From Candidatus Latescibacterota bacterium (GTDB taxonomy: Bacteria; Latescibacterota; UBA2968; GCA-2709665), in contig OZ244937.1 of the NCBI GenBank assembly GCA_965222075.1, positions 3,104,001 to 3,168,000 on the forward strand: a stretch of 64,000 bases of DNA, read 5' to 3'. Made by a program: the position numbers and the translations under genes. The notes beneath the pieces were generated by a model. The model was not told the DNA's origin, ran no database searches, and saw only the letters and a program-made list of their open reading frames with translations. Position 1 is the first letter of the stretch. Each line of letters opens with the position of its first letter. Of the stretch, positions 17,622 through 28,179 are shown in pieces.

Positions 17622-18794
17622 ATGGACGCCGCTCTGGAACGGCTCTTCCTCATCCACTACCATGAAATCGGCCTGAAAGGCAAGAACCGGAGCCGGTTTG
17701 AGAACCAGCTCCTGCGCAACATCGAGCACGCCCTCAAAGGCGTTTCCTGTGGAGCCGCGCGCCGCATCACCGGTCGCCTCCTCCTGGAACTCGCCCCCGA
17801 CACCCCTCTCGGCATCGTTCAGGAGCGCCTGGCCGGGGTCTTTGGCATCGCCAACTTCTCGGAGGCTGTCCGCGTCCCCTCTACCATCGAAGCCATCCGG
17901 GAGGCCGCCTGGGCAGTTGTCCGGAAAGCCCGCTTCGCCTCCTTCAAAATCGCCACGAAACGCGCCGACAAATCCTTTCCACTGAACTCGAACGAAATCA
18001 ACTGCGACGTGGGCGCCTACATCGAGACCCGCTCGCAGGCCCAGGTCAAAATGGAGCGTCCCGACCTCACCTGCTTCATCGAACTCTCCCACCAGGGGAC
18101 TTTCATCTACACCCAAAAAACCCCGGGGCCGGGCGGCCTGCCCGTGGGCGTCAACGAACGGGCCGTCAGCCTCCTCTCCTCCGGCATTGACTCCCCGGTG
18201 GCCTCCTACCGGATCATGAAGCGGGGCGTGCGGCTCGCCTTCGTCCACTTCCACAGCCAGCCCTACACGAACCGCAACTCCCAGCGAAACACGGAAGAAC
18301 TCGTCCGCCTCCTCACCCGCTACCAGTTCAAGTCCACCCTCTACCTGGTCCCCTTCGTCGAAACCCAGCGGCGCATCATGACCGGCGCCCTCCCCGGCTA
18401 CCGTGTTATCCTCTACCGCCGCGCCATGTTCCGCATCGCCGAGGCGGTCGCCCTCAGGGAAGGCGCCCAGGCCCTGGTTACCGGCGAAAACGTGGGCCAG
18501 GTCGCCTCCCAGACCCTCTCCAACCTCCGGGCCATCGAAGCGGTCACCGCCCTCCCGGTCCTGCGACCCCTATCCGGCGACAACAAAGAGGAGATCATCG
18601 CCGAAGCCAGGCGCATCGGCACCTACGAAACCTCCACCGAACCCTACGAAGACTGCTGCACCGCCTTTGTCCCCAAACACCCCGAAACCCGCGCCGACCT
18701 GGAAACCGCGCAGGACATCGAGTCCCACCTCGACCTGGGTGCCCTCATCGAACAGACCCTGAACGCGACGGAGGTGAAGCGGTTCAAGCTGTAG
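17622..18794 (+). CDS. thiI: tRNA 4-thiouridine synthase (no rhodanese domain)
   Basis: HYHEIGLKGKNR, THUMP domain, SSGIDSPVA PP-loop, GQVASQTLSNL, EDCC. Confidence 0.95.
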   Translation: MDAALERLFLIHYHEIGLKGKNRSRFENQLLRNIEHALKGVSCGAARRITGRLLLELAPDTPLGIVQERLAGVFGIANFSEAVRVPSTIEAIREAAWAVVRKARFASFKIATKRADKSFPLNSNEINCDVGAYIETRSQAQVKMERPDLTCFIELSHQGTFIYTQKTPGPGGLPVGVNERAVSLLSSGIDSPVASYRIMKRGVRLAFVHFHSQPYTNRNSQRNTEELVRLLTRYQFKSTLYLVPFVETQRRIMTGALPGYRVILYRRAMFRIAEAVALREGAQALVTGENVGQVASQTLSNLRAIEAVTALPVLRPLSGDNKEEIIAEARRIGTYETSTEPYEDCCTAFVPKHPETRADLETAQDIESHLDLGALIEQTLNATEVKRFKL

Positions 18795-19825: not shown

Positions 19826-20923
19826 ATGAGCAGGAGAAAAAAAGTTCGGGTCGCCATCATCGGCGTGGGCAACTGCGCCTCCTCTCTCGTCCAGGGCGTG
19901 CACTACTACAAAGACGCGGACAAGGACGCCTTTGTGCCGGGCCTGATGCACGTCGACCTGGGCGGCTATCACGTCAGCGACATCGAGTTTTCTGCCGCAT
20001 TCGACGTCGGTAAAGAAAAGGTGGGCAAAGACCTCGGCGAAGCCATCTTTGCCCACCCGAACAACACCGTCAAATTCGCAGACGTCCCCCACTTAGACGT
20101 TTCCGTCCAGCGCGGCATGACCCACGACGGCCTGGGCAAATACCTCTCCGAAGTGATCGAAAAGGCCGAACCGCCCACCGTCGACGTGGCCGAAATCCTC
20201 AAAGCCACGAAGACCGACGTGGTGGTCAGCTACCTCCCTGTGGGCAGCGAAGAGGCCACCAAATGGTACGTCGAACAGATCCTGCAGGCCGGGTGTGGTT
20301 TTATCAACTGCATCCCCGTCTTCATCGCCAGCGCCGGCTACTGGCCCGAACGCTTCGAAAAGCGGGGCCTGCCCATCATCGGCGACGACATCAAATCCCA
20401 GGTCGGCGCCACCATCGCACACCGCGTGCTCACCCGGCTCTTCCGCGAGCGGGGCGTTAAACTCCTGCGCACCTACCAGCTCAACTTCGGCGGCAACACC
20501 GACTTCTACAACATGCTGGAGCGCTCCCGGCTCGAATCAAAAAAGATCAGCAAGACCAACGCCGTCACCTCCCAACTCGACCACGACCTGGGCGAGGGCA
20601 ATGTCCACGTGGGCCCTTCCGACCACGTCCCCTGGCTGGAAGACCGGAAATGGTGCCACATCCGCATGGAAGGGGAGACCTTTGGCGGCGTGCCCCTCAA
20701 CCTCGAACTCAAACTCGAAGTCTGGGACTCGCCCAACTCCGCCGGCGTGGTCATCGATGCGGTCCGCTGCTGCAAGCTCGCCCTCAACCACGGCCTCAAA
20801 GGCCCGCTGCTGGCCCCCTCCTCCTACTTCATGAAAACCCCGCCGCAGCAGTTCAGCGACGACCAGGCCCGGGAAATGGTGGAAGACTTCATCCTCCAGT
20901 ATGGCCGGAACGGCAGGGCGTGA
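19826..20923 (+). CDS. ino1: inositol-3-phosphate synthase
   Basis: [60 protein letters not shown]. Confidence 0.96.
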
Positions 20924-20988
20924 TAAAAAGCATGCACCGAAAGAGACGCAGAGAACGCGGAGAAAGACCAAAAACGCGGACAACACAA

Positions 20989-21022
20989 AAACGGACGGTC
21001 GACCGTGGTCAACCGTCCGTTT
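20989..21022. terminator. bidirectional hairpin between convergent ino1 and DegT genes
   Basis: AAACGGACGGTCGAC-CGTG-GTCAACCGTCCGTTT. Confidence 0.65.
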
Positions 21023-21042
21023 GGTTTCGTAAGCTTCACGAT

Positions 21043-22305
21043 CTACTTCAGCTCTCCCGCCTGTGTCACCACCTTCCGGAACGCTTCGGCGTGCTCTTTG
21101 ATAATCTCCGGGCGGTAGTGCTTGAACCATGGGATGGAATACACCTGCTCCGTCATCCGCTCCGTCACCGGCAGGCTGCCCTCTCCCTGCCGCACGTCCT
21201 GATCCGAATGGGCGATACGCGTCGGCTTGCCGTCGCCGTATACATCCGCGTCGTTTAAAACCGGATGCAGGTGCAGCAGCAGGTTCGCCCCCGGGCCGGT
21301 CGACGTCCCTTCCGCCCGAACCGCCTCGCAGAACTTCTGCACGCTCAGCCCGTCCAGTTCTTCTGGAACGTAGAGCCCGTGCGCCGCGTACCACCCCCCC
21401 ATCGTACTCCCCGAATCCTTCGGGGGCCGGTGCGCCTTGATCCCCGGCGCGCCCTCCAGCAGATCCCAGAAATAGTTCATCGCCTTCTGGATCTCCTCCA
21501 TCCGCTCCTGATAGTGCCTAAGCTGAACCCGACCGACTGCGGATGAAAGCTGGTGCATCCGGTACTTGAATCCCCCCAGCGGCAGCCCGGAAAATTTCTT
21601 CAGCTCCGGATCTTCGATCTGCCCTGTGCGCTCGTAGTGCCCAAACGCCGCCGCACGCTCGTAAATCTTTTTATCATTTGTAATCAGCATCCCCGCTTCG
21701 CCGATCGCCAGAGACTTGCCCGACATACAGGACATCGCACCCACATGCCCGATCGTGCCCACCAGCCGGCCCTTGTAGAGCGCCCCGTGCGCGTGCGACA
21801 CATCCTCGATCACCTTGATCCCGCGCGCATTGGCGATCTCCATAATCGGGTCCATATCGGTTGGATGCCCCAGATAGTGCACCACCATAATCGCCTTGGT
21901 CCTGTCCGTAATCTTGCGCTCCATATCCTCGGCATCCAGCGTCAGCGTATCCGGGTCCATATCCGCGAAAACGATCGTAGCCCCCAGGTTCATTGCCTGT
22001 AGCACGGACGCCCAGAAGGTCATGCTCTGGCAGATAATCTCGTCTCCCACGCCTATCCCGCACCCGAACATCGCCGTATGCAGCGAAGCCGTACCCGTAT
22101 TGTGCGCCAGCGCGTACTTCATATCGTGCCACTCTGCATATTCCTTCTCAAACGCCACCGTTACATCCGTCCCGGACATCGCCCCCCGGCGCAGCACCTC
22201 TAACGCGGCCTCTTCGTCCTCCTGGGTGATAATCGGCCACTTGAACATATCCCCCGGATCGGTCTTCACCGCCTTGGGCCCACCCAGAATCGCCAGCTTA
22301 TCCAT
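21043..22305 (-). CDS. DegT/DnrJ/EryC1/StrS PLP-dependent aminotransferase
   Basis: LAILGGP N-terminus, GTASLH, IEDVSHAHGA, SGKSLAIGEAG (PLP Lys). Confidence 0.92.
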   Translation of the reverse strand: MDKLAILGGPKAVKTDPGDMFKWPIITQEDEEAALEVLRRGAMSGTDVTVAFEKEYAEWHDMKYALAHNTGTASLHTAMFGCGIGVGDEIICQSMTFWASVLQAMNLGATIVFADMDPDTLTLDAEDMERKITDRTKAIMVVHYLGHPTDMDPIMEIANARGIKVIEDVSHAHGALYKGRLVGTIGHVGAMSCMSGKSLAIGEAGMLITNDKKIYERAAAFGHYERTGQIEDPELKKFSGLPLGGFKYRMHQLSSAVGRVQLRHYQERMEEIQKAMNYFWDLLEGAPGIKAHRPPKDSGSTMGGWYAAHGLYVPEELDGLSVQKFCEAVRAEGTSTGPGANLLLHLHPVLNDADVYGDGKPTRIAHSDQDVRQGEGSLPVTERMTEQVYSIPWFKHYRPEIIKEHAEAFRKVVTQAGELK

Positions 22306-22482
22306 CCTCCTGACCTCCTTCGGAATCAGCCATACTTCTATGTCGGGTTGTGCGCAAAGAATCTCCTCGCGCCGATCAGAAACGCCATCTTTTTTTAATA
22401 TACCTCATTTCAAAGCCCGTACGCCAGCAAAAAGGCCCCGGAGGGTGATCTTCCGGAGCCTCGACCGATCTCTGCGCTGCGC

Positions 22483-23751
22483 TCACGCATCAAAATACGA
22501 CTTCCGGCTCGCGTGCGGCGGGGTGCGGTCCCGTTCAGCACGGCCTGCAATCGTCATCGCAACGCCCATCGGCGCCGGCTCTACATCCTCCCGGCGGTTG
22601 TTAAACGTCGTTGCCCCCCACCGTGACCCCACCGCAACCAGGTCGAACCGCGAAAACCGCTCTGCCTGCGGGTCGAACGAAAGATATCCCAGCAGCTTCG
22701 CGTCAAATCCCCGCTCGCGGATAATACAGCACATCTCCCCCCGTTTGTAAACCGACTCACGGGGCGGAAACGTACACCAGTCCTTCTCCTCGCACAAAAA
22801 CGCGTGTCCGGAAACCTTCAGATCCACCCCCTCCGGCGTCACACCGGTCACCGTCAACCACATCTCCACATCACAAAGCGCCTCAGGAGGCCAGGGGGCC
22901 GTCTCCCCCCGCACGCTGTCGACCAGGTGAAACCGGACCAGCCGCCGGGTGACCTCTCCCGGCATTGGAAAGGAATCGCCCACCGCCGCATCGGGCGGTA
23001 CAATCAAGCGCATCTCCTCCCGCGTGAGCCAGACGTAATCCTGGTTGTGGGAATCCAGAAAGATCTCCGGCCGAAAATCCACCTGCCGGGACAGGTCCCG
23101 AACGCCCAGGTGGAGCACCAGACCGTCCTCCGGATACGCCCAGGCAAACCGGGTATCCGGCCCTTCCACCTCTCCGATCCGGAAGCACCCGTGCTGCGTC
23201 CCTCGACGCTCCCAGTTCTCCAGCGCCTGTTCCATCATCTCCAAAAGCTGATCCGGGTCGCGCACGTGGCGGGAGCCCAGCAGCTCTCCCTCCGTCGTCG
23301 TCACAAACTGCCCCTGGTGGCACTCCCCGTGCTCCGTATCGGCCATCCGGGCGCTGGCCTCCTCAAACGAGAGGCCAAATCGGCCCTGCCAGGAGACCAG
23401 GCGTAAAAACCTCCCCTCCTCGTCGTCCTGTCGCTGCAGGTGGCTGATATTGGCCGCAACGGGAACAAACTTCTCGTTTAAAAGCCCGATCACGCGCGGA
23501 TCGGAAAATGTGAGCGCACGGCCCACAACCCCGTTGTTTCAGACACACCCAAGCGGGTGCCCGTTCATCGCCCAGATGAACAGCGGCTTCTCCAGCTCGG
23601 CCGCCTGCTGACGCCCCTCCCAGAGATGGCCGATCCAGGGCACCTCCGTCCACCGCTCCTTGTCTGCGCGGGGCCGGCAGGCCTCGAACAGCTCCTCAAA
23701 CGTCTCCGCCCTCAGCGCGGGCGGGGGATTCACTATCTCTTCGGTAACCAT
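22483..23751 (-). CDS. putative selenoprotein, thioredoxin-like fold, CxU motif (in-frame UGA at 23541-23539)
   Basis: ORFs 23539-23805 and 22483-23526 are in the same frame: KPLFIWAMNGHPLGCV-UGA-NNGVVGRALTFSDPRVIGLLNEKFVPV. Hairpin immediately 3' of the UGA. Confidence 0.8.
23503..23532 (-). other. candidate bacterial SECIS hairpin
   Basis: GGGG-U-UGUGGGC-CGUGC-GCUCACA-UU-UUCC. Apical loop starts 19 nt after UGA with G at loop position 2. Confidence 0.6.
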
Positions 23752-24035
23752 ACACATCTCTCCCTTGTTGAGAGTGGGATAAAGCCTCCAGGGTGTGGTT
23801 TTCAAATATAACCCCGAACTCTTTCAAGAGGTTAGAAAGGTTTTGCAGAGTGGGTTACACCCTATTGATAAGAAAAAAAGGGGCCGATAGCAAGAAAAAT
23901 TTCTTCAAAGCGGCGATCCTCTCCGGCCCCCTCCCTTTGGGCTTGATTTCACAGGAAAGTTTGCGTATTCATTGGGGGTTTTAACGACAGCTTCTAAAAC
24001 GCAACGGGGCAAAAGCCACCTTCCGAGGTCCGGAT

Positions 24036-25604
24036 ATGACATCTGAAACTCCGCTGTCCAAACAACAGATCGCCGATGGCCTGAAAGCCCTCGGCCTCTC
24101 CCGGGGGGCCATCCTGATGGTCCATGCGTCTCTCAGCAGCCTGGGGGAAGTCGATGGCGGGGCCGGCGCCCTCATCGACGCCCTGCTGGAGGCCCTCGGA
24201 CCGGAAGGCACCCTCCTGATGCCCACCCATCCGGCCCGTGACGGGCGCACCTTCCACCCCGACGCGATCCCCTCCGACATGGGGACCATCACCGAAACCT
24301 TCCGCCTGCGTCCCGGCGTGCTGCGCAGCCGCCACCCCTACCATCCGGTAGCAGCGATCGGTGCCCGGGCCGAGGAGATGCTGCGCGACCACGAGCAGAG
24401 CGCGGTCCCCGACGGCCCGGAAACCCCCTACGGCCGCCTCATTGCCCTGGACGGCCGGGTGCTGCACATCGGCTGCGACCTGAACACGCTCACCCTGCTC
24501 CACACCGTGGAAGCGGAACTGGACCTGCCCTACCTGCGGGAGTTGGAGATGAAATACGTGGATGCCCAGGGAAAGGTCCGCACCCTGCAGATCAAACGCT
24601 GTCCCGGCGGGCACCGGGGCGGCGTCTGGAAATTCGACCGCTTATTCCGAGAAGAGGGCGCCATGTCCCTCGGACGGATCGAACGCGCGGTCTGCCGGTT
24701 GATCTCTGCGCCGGAAGCAGCGGCGGTCATGCGCCGGGAAATGGCCCGGGACCCCGCCTTTGCCTTAGACGACAACCCCCACTGCGCCGACTGCGTCCGC
24801 TTCCGGAGCAAAATCGGGCCCCGTTCCCAAACCAGGCGAAAACCGCGTGTGCAGATCAACAACAAGGCCGGCCGCCTGGCCCGTGAGGACTTCCGGCTCA
24901 CCGCCCCCCTCTGGGCCGTCGCCCGGAATCCTGAGCAGGCCCTGGACCTGATTCGGGAGGAAGGCATCGCGCACGTAGAGCTGCACACAGAACATCTACC
25001 CGAACCGGACGGCCTTAACAGGCAGCTCACGGACCGGGGGATGGACATCGCCGTCCTGCGCACCGACCTCGGCCCGCCCGATGTAATCGCCGAACAAGCA
25101 GCCCGGCTAAAGGTCGCCTGTCTGCACGTCGGCGCCCCAAACCGAACCGAAATGAACCATCCCCAACTCGTAGACGCACTCTGCGCCCTGGCCCAAGCGG
25201 CTGGCGGCCGGGGAATCACCGCGCTTTTGGGCAACCGGCCGGACAGCCTCGCAGAAACCGCGGAGGAACTGGCTGCGCTCGTAAAAGAGGTCGGCTCGCC
25301 AAACCTGAAGGCGAGCTACAACCCGGCCCATATCGCGTGGTCCGGAGGCAGTCCTTTCTACGGTGGACTCTACAAAGGACCGCTGCGCCGCAACCTGCGC
25401 CACGTGGATCTACAAGATGTGGTCGTCGCCGACAGAAGGGGGGTCACACCCGGCATGGGCAATGCCGAAATCATAGAAATCATCTCCAATCTGCGCTGCC
25501 GAAGCTTTGATGGATTCCTGTGTCTCTGGCCGCTGCCAAAGCAGGGGGATGAGGGATTTCGGGAAGCGGCGAGAGGCTTCCGGGAGATCATGGAGCGCAT
25601 CTGA
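24036..25604 (+). CDS. AAC(3)-family N-acetyltransferase fused to a xylose-isomerase-like TIM barrel
   Basis: MVHASLSSLG, GTLLMPT, RSRHP, TLLHTVE; HCADC linker; C-terminal YNPAH, HVDLQD, PGMGN. Confidence 0.8.
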   Translation: MTSETPLSKQQIADGLKALGLSRGAILMVHASLSSLGEVDGGAGALIDALLEALGPEGTLLMPTHPARDGRTFHPDAIPSDMGTITETFRLRPGVLRSRHPYHPVAAIGARAEEMLRDHEQSAVPDGPETPYGRLIALDGRVLHIGCDLNTLTLLHTVEAELDLPYLRELEMKYVDAQGKVRTLQIKRCPGGHRGGVWKFDRLFREEGAMSLGRIERAVCRLISAPEAAAVMRREMARDPAFALDDNPHCADCVRFRSKIGPRSQTRRKPRVQINNKAGRLAREDFRLTAPLWAVARNPEQALDLIREEGIAHVELHTEHLPEPDGLNRQLTDRGMDIAVLRTDLGPPDVIAEQAARLKVACLHVGAPNRTEMNHPQLVDALCALAQAAGGRGITALLGNRPDSLAETAEELAALVKEVGSPNLKASYNPAHIAWSGGSPFYGGLYKGPLRRNLRHVDLQDVVVADRRGVTPGMGNAEIIEIISNLRCRSFDGFLCLWPLPKQGDEGFREAARGFREIMERI

Positions 25605-25694
25605 TTCCACCGCAGAATACAGACAACCGGGGTCAAAGTGCTGTTGACACAGGTCTCGCTCCGCCCTAACTTGGGTGGAAAAAGGAGATCGATC

Positions 25695-26753
25695 ATGACC
25701 AAAAGGCTCGAAGCGCCTGTCAGATGCGCCGTCATCGGGTACGGCGCCGCCCACATCTTTGGCAGGGCGCACGGCAGATGGATCGATGCAACGCCCAACC
25801 TGGAATGGGTCGCGGTATGCGACATAGACTCCGAGCGGCTCAGGGTCGCAACAGACGAGTTTCCGCACCTGAAAACCTGCTCCAGCGTTACGGATCTGCT
25901 TGAAAGGGCCGAGGTCGACATGGTCTCGGTGATCACGCCGCACCACACACACGCGCCTATTGCGCTTGAATGTATCCGCGCAGGCAAGCACGTCATCGTA
26001 GACAAGGCCATGTGTCTGAGCGTGGCCGAAGCCACCGCGATGATCGAAGAGGCCGAGAAACAAAACGCCATGCTGGCCGTCTTTCACGGCCGCCGGCACG
26101 ACGGCAACTACCGCGCCATCCAGGAAACCGTCCGCAGCGGCCTCATCGGCGACCTGTTTCACATCGAACTCACCGCCGGAGGATATCGGAAGCCCCGGGA
26201 CTGGTGGTACAGCAAGAAGGCCCTCGGCGGAGGCGCCTTTTATTACTGGGGGCCCCACGCCGTCGACTGGGTGCTCAACCTCGTCCAGGACAGCGTAAGC
26301 GGTGTAACCGGCTTTTACCACAAACTCGTCTGGGACGACGTGGACATCGAAGACCAGACCCGGGCGATCCTGCGCTTTGAAAACGGCGCCGTGGCCGACA
26401 TCACCTATTCGCACATCGCCGCGGCCGGCAAACCGGCGTGGAGAATTCTGGGCACGAAGGGCGCGATTGTCGATACCGGAACCGACGGAGCCAAGGGCTA
26501 CCAGGAGCAAATCGTCGGCCCGCCGGGTGGAAGCTTTCAGGCAATCACAATCGAAAACGACAAACGCCGTGAAACGACCGTACCCTACAAGGATTCCGAC
26601 TGGCTCACCTACTATATCGAAATTGCAGAGCACCTTCTAAACGGCGGCCCCATACCCGTCACCGGAGAAGAGGGCCGGAGAACCATCGCAGTATTCGAAG
26701 CCGCCGAACGGTCCTCCCGGACCGGCAAAACCGAACCTGTGGAATATGAGTGA
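25695..26753 (+). CDS. Gfo/Idh/MocA oxidoreductase
   Basis: AVIGYG, ITPHHTH, GKHVIVDK, GGGAFYYWGPH. Confidence 0.9.
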   Translation: MTKRLEAPVRCAVIGYGAAHIFGRAHGRWIDATPNLEWVAVCDIDSERLRVATDEFPHLKTCSSVTDLLERAEVDMVSVITPHHTHAPIALECIRAGKHVIVDKAMCLSVAEATAMIEEAEKQNAMLAVFHGRRHDGNYRAIQETVRSGLIGDLFHIELTAGGYRKPRDWWYSKKALGGGAFYYWGPHAVDWVLNLVQDSVSGVTGFYHKLVWDDVDIEDQTRAILRFENGAVADITYSHIAAAGKPAWRILGTKGAIVDTGTDGAKGYQEQIVGPPGGSFQAITIENDKRRETTVPYKDSDWLTYYIEIAEHLLNGGPIPVTGEEGRRTIAVFEAAERSSRTGKTEPVEYE

Positions 26754-28179
26754 ATCGCCTCACCTCTGCTCCTTGAAAGTGAACAGCGCCATGCCTGAAC
26801 ATCTCGATACCGAAGAACTTATAGAAGCCTCCCGACACCTCTGGCAGAACTATTTCCCAGGCAAGCAACCGGCCAAACACCCCGGCGTGCTGGTCCGCGG
26901 CGAAGGCCTCTATGTCTACGACGCCGATGGCAACCGCTATCTCGACACCTTCGCGTCCCTCCTCACCACCCTGTGCGGGCACGGCCGGCCCGAGGTGGTC
27001 AAAGCCGTCAAAGATCAGATGGAGAAACTGTCCTACTTCCCGGGGGGCCAGAACTTCATCATGGAACCTACGGTGAGACTGGCGAAGGTGCTCGCCGAAA
27101 TCACCCCCGGGGACCTCTCCGTCACGTTCTTCGTAAACGACGGTTCGGAGGCCTGCGAAGCGGCCATCAAAATGGCCCGCCAGTACTTCTGGACAAAGGG
27201 GGAAAAGACCCGCCAGAAAATCATCTTCCGCCGCTACTCCTACCACGGCGCAACCCTCGGCGCCCTCTCCGCTACCGGCCTGCCCGCCATGCGGGAGCCC
27301 TTCGAGCCGCTCCTGCCCGGCTTCACGCACGTCATGCCCGCGTGGTGCTACCGGTGTGAACTCGACCTGCACCCTGCTTCGTGCGGTGTGGCCTGTCTGA
27401 AGAACCTGGAAGCTACGGTCCAGTGGGAAGGTCCGGATTCTGTCGCAGCCATCATCATGGACCCCATCCCAGGCTCGAACACCGGCTTCCCGCTGCCCCC
27501 GGACGGCTACATCGAGGGCGTGCGTGAGCTGTGCGACCGGTACGGCATCCTCTTAATCTTCGACGAGATCCAGGTCGGCTTCGGCCGCACCGGCAAGATG
27601 TTCTGCTGCGAAAACTGGGGCGTAACGCCCGACATCATGGCCGTCGCAAAAGGCTTCTCCGGCGGCTACCTCCCCCTGGGCGCCGCCATTGCCACAGACC
27701 GGATCGCGGAAGCCTTCCGCGCGTCCGGCTCCGGATTCCGGCACGTCCATACCTACTCAGGCCACGCCGTGGCCTGCGCCGCCGCCCTGGCCAACATCGA
27801 AATCATCCGGAAGGAAGGCCTGGTCCAAAAGGCGGCCGCGTTGGGAGCCTATCTGAAGCCGAAACTGGAGGAGCTTTACAAATACCCGATCGTGGGCGAC
27901 GTACGCGGCATCGGCACCCTCTGGGCGGTCGAACTGGTGGCGAACCGTGAGACCCGCGCGCCCTTCTCTCCGCCGGGCCGCGCAGGTTCATTCATCGGCA
28001 GCGCCTGCTGGGAATCCGGCATCATCCTCCGCAACAACGGCGACATCCTCGTCATAGCGCCCGCGCTCATCATGACGGACGAGCAGGCGGATGAAATGAC
28101 CGGCATGCTGGACAGCGCTATTGCGGAAGCCATGAAACGTTGTACGGCCGATAACGGCACACTGCAGTGGTCTGAATAG
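26746..28179 (+). CDS. class III PLP aminotransferase (omega-amino acid/BioA-like)
   Basis: GSEACEAAIK, SYHGAT, FDEIQVGFGRTG, PDIMAVAKGFSGGYLP, HTYSGH. Confidence 0.92.
   Translation: MSESPHLCSLKVNSAMPEHLDTEELIEASRHLWQNYFPGKQPAKHPGVLVRGEGLYVYDADGNRYLDTFASLLTTLCGHGRPEVVKAVKDQMEKLSYFPGGQNFIMEPTVRLAKVLAEITPGDLSVTFFVNDGSEACEAAIKMARQYFWTKGEKTRQKIIFRRYSYHGATLGALSATGLPAMREPFEPLLPGFTHVMPAWCYRCELDLHPASCGVACLKNLEATVQWEGPDSVAAIIMDPIPGSNTGFPLPPDGYIEGVRELCDRYGILLIFDEIQVGFGRTGKMFCCENWGVTPDIMAVAKGFSGGYLPLGAAIATDRIAEAFRASGSGFRHVHTYSGHAVACAAALANIEIIRKEGLVQKAAALGAYLKPKLEELYKYPIVGDVRGIGTLWAVELVANRETRAPFSPPGRAGSFIGSACWESGIILRNNGDILVIAPALIMTDEQADEMTGMLDSAIAEAMKRCTADNGTLQWSE

Follow-up and report, generated by a model that had tools for sequence, protein, structure and literature searches.

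Introduction

A review of May 2026 (PMC13188914) lists 119 families and subfamilies of prokaryotic selenoproteins in its Table 1, where every entry bears a Pfam, NCBIfam, TIGRFAM, cd or PTHR identifier. The legend to Fig. 2 of that review gives a model for the bacterial selenocysteine insertion sequence (bSECIS), with a loop of 3-9 nucleotides (nt), a stem of 4-16 base pairs (bp), a G in the first two loop positions, a distance of 16-37 nt from the UGA codon and a minimum free energy (MFE) of -7.5 kcal/mol or lower. Catalogued thioredoxin-fold selenoproteins have one in-frame UGA at the redox position, a selenocysteine insertion sequence (SECIS) directly downstream and relatives that contain Cys, and the gene described here shares all three features. 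It occupies positions 22483..23751 of the minus strand in a stretch of 64,000 nt (hereafter the window) from a Candidatus Latescibacterota bacterium (assembly GCA_965222075.1, contig OZ244937.1, positions 3,104,001 to 3,168,000). Public gene callers record only its downstream part. The locus is very probably a single gene for a cytoplasmic selenoprotein of 422 residues, with UGA predicted to be decoded as selenocysteine (Sec) by way of a SECIS. The reading frame is continuous across the UGA, the UGA is conserved among relatives, the hairpin downstream of it covaries, the genome carries the Sec machinery, and the protein has a thioredoxin fold.

Differences from the catalogued selenoprotein families are found at several levels. 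None of their Pfam or NCBIfam models matches the protein at E <= 1, the proteins of this family are about 420 amino acids (aa) long with an extra beta domain of 237 residues, the motif is G-C-(V/T)-U-N-N-G, and, among the relatives examined, Sec forms far outnumber Cys forms. One catalogued group, Sec.1, has the same C-x-U spacing. Because no Pfam or NCBIfam model matches, while every entry of Table 1 has an identifier, the family is judged to lie outside the 119 families listed there; the NCBIfam library that was searched also includes TIGRFAM-numbered models, and entries with cd or PTHR identifiers alone stand outside this direct comparison. Literature searches for a described bacterial relative returned nothing on this family.

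A second point of comparison is the eukaryotic selenoprotein N (SELENON). In the published descriptions cited here, SELENON is a type II membrane protein whose Sec-bearing thioredoxin-like domain comes after a transmembrane segment and an EF-hand; its motif is SCUG, and the Sec lies close to the C-terminus, at residue 458 or 462 (PMC12839072, PMC8148124).

Gene structure and reading frame

The list of open reading frames (ORFs) divides the gene in two. One minus-strand ORF, 23539..23805, has 88 aa and terminates with TGA at 23541..23539, and the other, 22483..23526, has 347 aa and starts with GTG. It is seen directly in the ORF list and the sequence that, as the initial annotation had stated, both share one frame, with nothing but the TGA and four sense codons (AAC AAC GGG GTT) between them. 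Read-through translation around the TGA gives ...PLFIWAMNGHPLGCV-U-NNGVVGRALTFSDPRVIGLLNEKFVPV..., and the continuous frame is also read as ...KPLFIWAMNGHPLGCV-U-NNGVVGRALTFSDPRVIGLLNEKFVPV.... The motif at the in-frame TGA is WAMNGHPLG-C-V-U-NNG, in which Cys69 and the predicted Sec71 (codon at 23539..23541, minus strand) form a C-x-U pair; the reading of this codon as Sec draws on the TGA in the same column of relatives and on the Sec machinery of the genome.

The most likely start codon is the ATG at 23751, which would put the UGA at codon 71 and make the protein 422 residues long. This ATG is preferred because GGAG stands 8 nt ahead of it and because the alignments of relatives begin at about this point. 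The Shine-Dalgarno-like sequence AAGGGAGAG (23758..23766, minus strand) was read directly from the letters ahead of the ATG, a second in-frame ATG is present at 23757, and the frame is closed by a stop codon 18 codons upstream of the ATG at 23751. From this start the gene would have 422 codons, one of them UGA, and would close with a TGA at 22485..22483. Full-length read-through matches in relatives agree with the single read-through gene of about this length that had been proposed from the sequence.

Conservation of the UGA codon

Protein databases held 148 matches to the read-through protein at E <= 0.001. The 120 relatives listed among them all measure 244-366 aa, none covers more than 79% of the query, and these database entries therefore lack the part that precedes the UGA. 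Evidence for the complete protein came from nucleotide searches. A six-frame search of 61 genomes around that of the window (G000) gave matches in 42, with alignments that extend from about residue 15-34 to about residue 440 of the 441-residue query, and each of the 46 matches that reach across the Sec column holds an in-frame TGA. When loci were translated with TGA as U and aligned, U fell in one shared column in 32/32 loci, within FIWAMNG(H/N)P.G(C/S)(V/T)-U-NNG. A scan of 185,579 species, with one genome per species and the patterns P[LM]F[IL]WAMN and [VT]CNNG..., yielded 77 loci; the Sec column could be aligned in 76 of these, and the codon there is TGA in every one. The sets of 32 and 76 loci overlap. 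The initial annotation had pointed to a conserved TGA in homologs of the joined protein as one feature to look for, and to TAA, TAG or a shifted frame at this position as signs of two separate genes. The former is present throughout both sets, and the latter were found in none of the 76 or the 32 loci.

The 76 loci span at least four phyla, and the scan loci come from metagenome-assembled genomes (MAGs) labelled Latescibacterota, Gemmatimonadota, Poribacteria and Planctomycetota (Pirellulaceae, Isosphaeraceae and Phycisphaerae), with one labelled Bacillota. Across the aligned loci the flanks WAMNG.P.G..U-NNG are invariant or nearly so, and the in-frame TGA is retained down to about 30% protein identity. 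The 70 residues upstream of the UGA are conserved as protein: among 18 sequences, 14 columns are invariant, including T17, W34, W39, W44, R47, P56, F58, W60, M62, N63, G64, P66 and G68, and the NNG directly after Sec is invariant in the same sequences. The called starts of the downstream fragments, by comparison, scatter over profile positions 75-104, which argues that there is no conserved site of translational restart.

Several genomes carry more than one copy. Sec-form paralogues occur at three places in an 8.1-Mb relative (G004) and in pairs in G029, G043, G054, G056, G063 and G065, all with TGA. One extra copy in G029 appears broken into two adjoining matches, residues 15-189 and 180-435.

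The predicted SECIS hairpin

The RNA downstream of the UGA can form a hairpin at 23509..23527 (minus strand), in which 23527..23521 pair with 23515..23509 in a 7-bp stem and 23520..23516 form the loop CGUGC. Counted from the A of the UGA, the first loop nucleotide is 19 nt downstream, which leaves a spacing of 18 nt between UGA and loop. The conserved part of the stem is its inner 6 bp, 23526..23521 with 23515..23510 (alignment columns 25-30 with 36-41); the seventh pair is not conserved, being unpaired in 12/25 sequences. With its 5-nt loop, a G at loop position 2 followed by U, a stem of 6-7 bp, a spacing of 18 nt and an MFE of -8.3 kcal/mol, the hairpin agrees with every element of the bSECIS model. 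The initial annotation had already noticed a 7-bp stem with a G-containing loop 19 nt downstream as a fit to this model, and comparison with relatives narrows the conserved stem to the inner 6 bp alone. The family median MFE is -7.6 kcal/mol for a 19-nt piece, and some members miss the limit of -7.5.

Stronger evidence for the hairpin came from covariation among 71 distinct sequences. The 6-bp stem is paired in 97.7% of the 426 cells, compensatory, two-sided changes are found in four of its six pairs, and the observed covariation score was reached by none of 500 shuffles. In controls with the partner slid by 1-3 columns, pairing falls to 21-55%. Changes in the stem are coupled to changes of amino acid, from G..L to R..R or to G..S, the pattern to be expected of an RNA that constrains the protein. 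Of the 71 sequences, 69 have the loop CGUG(C/A/U), the in-loop Arg codon likewise being CGT in 69/71, and the other two have CGGGC. The CGGGC loops belong to two Poribacteria MAG loci (L107 and L109); a G followed by G in the loop is likewise permitted by the published bSECIS pattern (PMC13188914). A search of Rfam returned two rows at chance level only (E 3.4 and 4.3), so that no Rfam model covers the hairpin. Judged by this pattern of conservation, the hairpin downstream of the UGA is a predicted bacterial SECIS.

Selenocysteine machinery

The genome was searched for selA, selB, selC and selD, the lack of which the initial annotation had named as one finding that would refute a selenoprotein. 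All four are present on the same 5.36-Mb contig as the gene. The tRNA-Sec gene (selC) scores 74.5 bits, where the cut-off is 47, and ARAGORN assigns it the anticodon TCA; selA (566.7 bits), selB (368.6 bits) and selD (374.5 bits) all score above their curated cut-offs. The selD gene has one in-frame TGA of its own, and for this reason its product is probably a selenoprotein as well. The selB, selD and tRNA-Sec genes are clustered on the minus strand outside the window, at G000:C1:3,959,749-3,962,940.

Fold and domains of the predicted protein

A structure model built with 18 relatives reached a predicted local distance difference test (pLDDT) score of 81.4 and a predicted template modelling (pTM) score of 0.80. 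It has a thioredoxin fold, beta-alpha-beta ... beta-beta-alpha, at residues about 30-185 (23197..23664, minus strand), and this domain carries C69-x-U71. After the strand 57-62 (FIWAMN) come the loop GHPLGCVU and then the helix 72-81. From this arrangement, the model places Sec71 at the start of helix 1, where it occupies the position of the nucleophilic Cys of CxxC. The proposal that the UGA sits at the redox position of a thioredoxin-like fold, made from the sequence alone, is borne out by the model.

The best structural matches are of the Thioredoxin_7, DsbH, AGR and UAS type. They are 3f9u_B (11.6; 2.7; 110), 2lst (10.8), AGR3 3ph9 (10.3), DsbH 2ju5 (9.7), 3ira (9.2), 7tkv (9.2) and UAS 2dlx (8.5). 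Identity between the selenoprotein and domains of the Thioredoxin_7, DsbD-gamma, DsbH, AGR and UAS groups (3f9u, 2ju5, 7tkv, 3ira, 3ph9, 2dlx and 1vrs) is 8-18%, and whereas those domains have CxxC or no redox motif, the motif here is C-x-U. Profile searches gave no closer assignment. The PDB search returned a single match, to an unrelated carboxylase at a chance-level E of 0.55; Pfam gave no family at E <= 1 for the read-through protein, including Thioredoxin_7 (PF13899), Thioredoxin_3 (PF13192) and EF-hand, and none at E <= 0.01 for the family domain of 13 full-length relatives; and NCBIfam release 20.0 gave none at E <= 1, including the VPGUxxT family NF041383.

Residues 186-422 (22486..23196, minus strand) form a beta-rich C-terminal domain of 237 residues that ends in a conserved PP....YF tail. 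The initial annotation had expected a large C-terminal domain of unfamiliar kind; modelled separately, the domain matched no known relative or fold family.

Members of the family differ in their N-termini. Among 28 loci, a hydrophobic, signal-peptide-like N-terminal segment is present in 13/13 Planctomycetota loci and 3/7 Poribacteria loci, having been judged by eye behind an over-long ORF start in four of these. Such a segment is lacking in 7/7 loci of Latescibacterota type, in three Poribacteria loci and in the locus labelled Bacillota, and one Poribacteria locus is ambiguous. The protein of the window is probably cytoplasmic, since its frame is closed by a stop 18 codons ahead of the ATG and contains no hydrophobic stretch in front of the domain, and many of its relatives are probably exported.

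Sec-less relatives and the wider family

When 1.84 billion representatives were searched with a profile, 2950 clusters matched at E <= 0.001 and 375 of these at E <= 1e-30; most of the 150 representatives listed begin right after the Sec column. Fifteen relatives were retrieved, 14 from this search and one from a search among longer proteins, and 14 of the 15 span the Sec column and were aligned. None of these 14 full-length proteins has Sec. Cys stands at the Sec column in four (P0130, P0162, P0179 and P0194), the usual pairing of Sec with Cys, and supplies the Cys homologs that had been sought since the initial annotation. The remaining residues are Ser in three (P0147, P0182 and P0271), Ala in two (P0129 and P0152), Asp in two (P0128 and P0233), Gly in P0157, Asn in P0171 and Arg in P0142. 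The NNG after the Sec column is lost together with Sec.

Four Sec-less relatives (P0128, P0152, P0179 and P0182), which correspond to both domains of the module, form the C-terminal part of Ser/Thr kinases, behind a hydrophobic segment, and these kinase-linked modules are probably extracytoplasmic. One kinase-linked relative also has Kelch repeats. In P0271 the module follows a region of the extracytoplasmic function (ECF) sigma factor type, as a fusion. A quick tree of 29 Sec and 14 Sec-less forms, with SH-aLRT (Shimodaira-Hasegawa-like approximate likelihood ratio test) support, divides the Sec forms into three groups with good support. The Sec group of Phycisphaerae and Isosphaeraceae has the kinase-linked Sec-less group as its sister (support 99), and a second Sec-less group stands separately (support 100). 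The Sec label requires at least two changes on this tree; its midpoint root was chosen for drawing and is arbitrary, and no direction of gain or loss is claimed.

Proposed mechanism and alternative explanations

In the mechanism that we propose, the UGA at 23541..23539 would be read as selenocysteine during translation, a step suggested by the presence of the canonical parts. The SECIS hairpin 18 nt past the UGA would recruit SelB with Sec-tRNA(Sec), the latter being made by the genome's own selA, selD and selC. In the protein, Sec71 may act as a nucleophile on an oxidised sulfur or peroxide substrate lodged between the two domains, a step on which we are evenly balanced, and the beta domain may help to hold that substrate. 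The selenenyl intermediate might then be resolved by Cys69 or by an outside thiol, for which the chances again seem about equal either way. Cys69 would be the usual but dispensable resolving residue.

Five observations weigh against this interpretation or parts of it. First, the single-sequence fold of a 91-nt stretch around the hairpin is no better than shuffles (z -0.09), so the case that the hairpin exceeds chance is made by the comparison with relatives and not by the fold of one sequence. Second, the TGA in 76/76 loci comes from loci that the scan patterns had pre-selected for the motif. Third, Cys69 is not invariant, being replaced by S, A or G in five loci (L038, L105, L128, L130 and L131); a Cys69-Sec71 selenenylsulfide consequently cannot be essential family-wide. 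Fourth, the proposed function has no backing from any Pfam or NCBIfam family. Fifth, no conserved neighbour indicates a pathway: among 414 neighbour ORFs, the commonest family, short-chain dehydrogenase, occurs at 15/76 loci.

The alternative that survives best accepts the insertion of Sec and disputes the chemistry. The C-x-U site might bind a metal, a metalloid or a selenium-sulfur species, or the protein might sense a ligand, without acting as an oxidoreductase. The fold is retained in the relatives with neither Sec nor Cys there (10/14, which have A, S, D, G, N or R instead), and the occurrence of such relatives as the outer domains of Ser/Thr kinases (P0128, P0152, P0179 and P0182) and in the ECF-sigma-type fusion (P0271) would suit binding or sensing, as would the fact that some Sec forms dispense with Cys69. 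The table of the published review also includes other C-x-U selenoproteins that do not count as plain oxidoreductases (PMC13188914). Set against these points, Sec occupies the nucleophile's place in a thioredoxin fold, the NNG after it is retained only where Sec is retained, which implies a tuned active site, and most known Sec sites are catalytic, according to a general statement in the same review (PMC13188914). We regard binding or sensing as unlikely, though with an appreciable share of the probability, and favour a catalytic Sec.

A different question is whether the gene is the bacterial orthologue of SELENON. Both are selenoproteins with a Cys near Sec in a thioredoxin-like domain, on the descriptions available for SELENON (PMC12839072, PMC8148124). 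The differences lie in motif, Sec position and architecture, and they set the two apart by published description and not by a comparison of sequences. In place of SCUG the motif here is C-(V/T/S)-U across the loci read, in which Sec does not directly follow Cys; Sec is at residue 71 of 422 as against 458 or 462 in SELENON (PMC12839072, PMC8148124). The protein also has no EF-hand (no Pfam match) and no hydrophobic N-terminal segment, and its C-terminal beta domain of 237 residues looks unrelated. Orthology is highly improbable on these grounds. The initial annotation had suggested that a similar string may follow Sec in SELENON. A search of five Poribacteria genomes with the family profile at E <= 1 found family members only and nothing SELENON-like. 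The profile search among longer proteins gave one match, not named SELENON, and absence from that set is weak evidence.

Two further alternatives deny the insertion of Sec, and both are rejected by the comparative data. The UGA might be translated as Trp, Cys or Gly by read-through or suppression, or the code might be altered. The gene's own terminal stop, though, is TGA, other ORFs in the window close normally under translation table 11, the genome has the full Sec machinery, and, without Sec, a hairpin that covaries and stands at the canonical SECIS distance would serve no purpose, all of which makes this explanation extremely unlikely. The chance that the locus consists of two separate small genes, or of a pseudogene with a nonsense mutation, is practically nil, since the agreement with public gene callers, which call the downstream part only, is outweighed by the retention of the in-frame TGA in distant relatives, by the four codons between the ORFs, which rank with the best conserved in the protein (NNG does not vary), by the variable starts of the downstream calls and by the conservation of the upstream 70 residues as protein.

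Genomic context

A terminator-like hairpin of 11 pairs with a 9-nt loop and a U run at its end lies at 22429..22462 (minus strand), 21 nt past the stop codon (MFE -23.5 kcal/mol, z -2.46 on folding). A consensus scan of 22200..24100 for promoters and terminators reported nothing; its loop limit is 8 nt, one less than the loop of this hairpin. Given the terminator-like hairpin with its U run past the stop, and given that the next upstream gene is divergent, the gene looks monocistronic.

The neighbouring genes encode a DegT/DnrJ/EryC1 aminotransferase, a Gfo/Idh/MocA oxidoreductase, a class-III aminotransferase and a myo-inositol-1-phosphate synthase, and the neighbour at 24036-25604 has an Antibiotic_NAT (aminoglycoside-3-N-acetyltransferase-like) domain fused to a xylose-isomerase-like TIM barrel. 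The genes at 19826-28179 resemble a pathway for an inositol-derived amino sugar or aminocyclitol, and this context is not kept at the loci of other members. The other neighbour families found at those loci (GyrA-like, Ldh_2, DUF6785, sulfatase, amidohydrolase and GH109-like) reflect genus-level synteny only. A gene for a tRNA sulfurtransferase of ThiI type (THUMP and ThiI domains) lies at 17622-18794, about 4 kb away; no link is implied.

Significance

The gene represents an additional, widespread family of the bacterial selenoproteome, missing from the review of 119 families, from Pfam and from NCBIfam, within the bounds of the comparison given above. Public annotation splits every member found, with the result that a family of thousands of clusters (2950 representatives at E <= 0.001) is recorded as fragments. 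The near-constant use of Sec in the family is unusual and argues that selenium does here what sulfur does poorly, and the Sec-less relatives linked to kinases and a sigma factor hint at a sensing role for the fold. What the window adds is a signal-less Latescibacterota branch, the covariation count over 71 sequences, the C-terminal domain modelled on its own, and the Sec-less relatives linked to kinases and a sigma factor.

A broader evolutionary scenario can be drawn, in which the family is an ancient Sec redox module of Planctomycetota, Poribacteria and Latescibacterota, its Sec-less offshoots became outer sensing domains of Ser/Thr kinases and ECF-sigma regulators, and the Sec-bearing domain of SELENON has its prokaryotic sister in the thioredoxin-like domain of this family. 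We consider this scenario speculative and doubtful, with a small chance of being correct. If it were true, a tractable bacterial protein could reveal the chemistry of selenoprotein N, a human muscle-disease protein.

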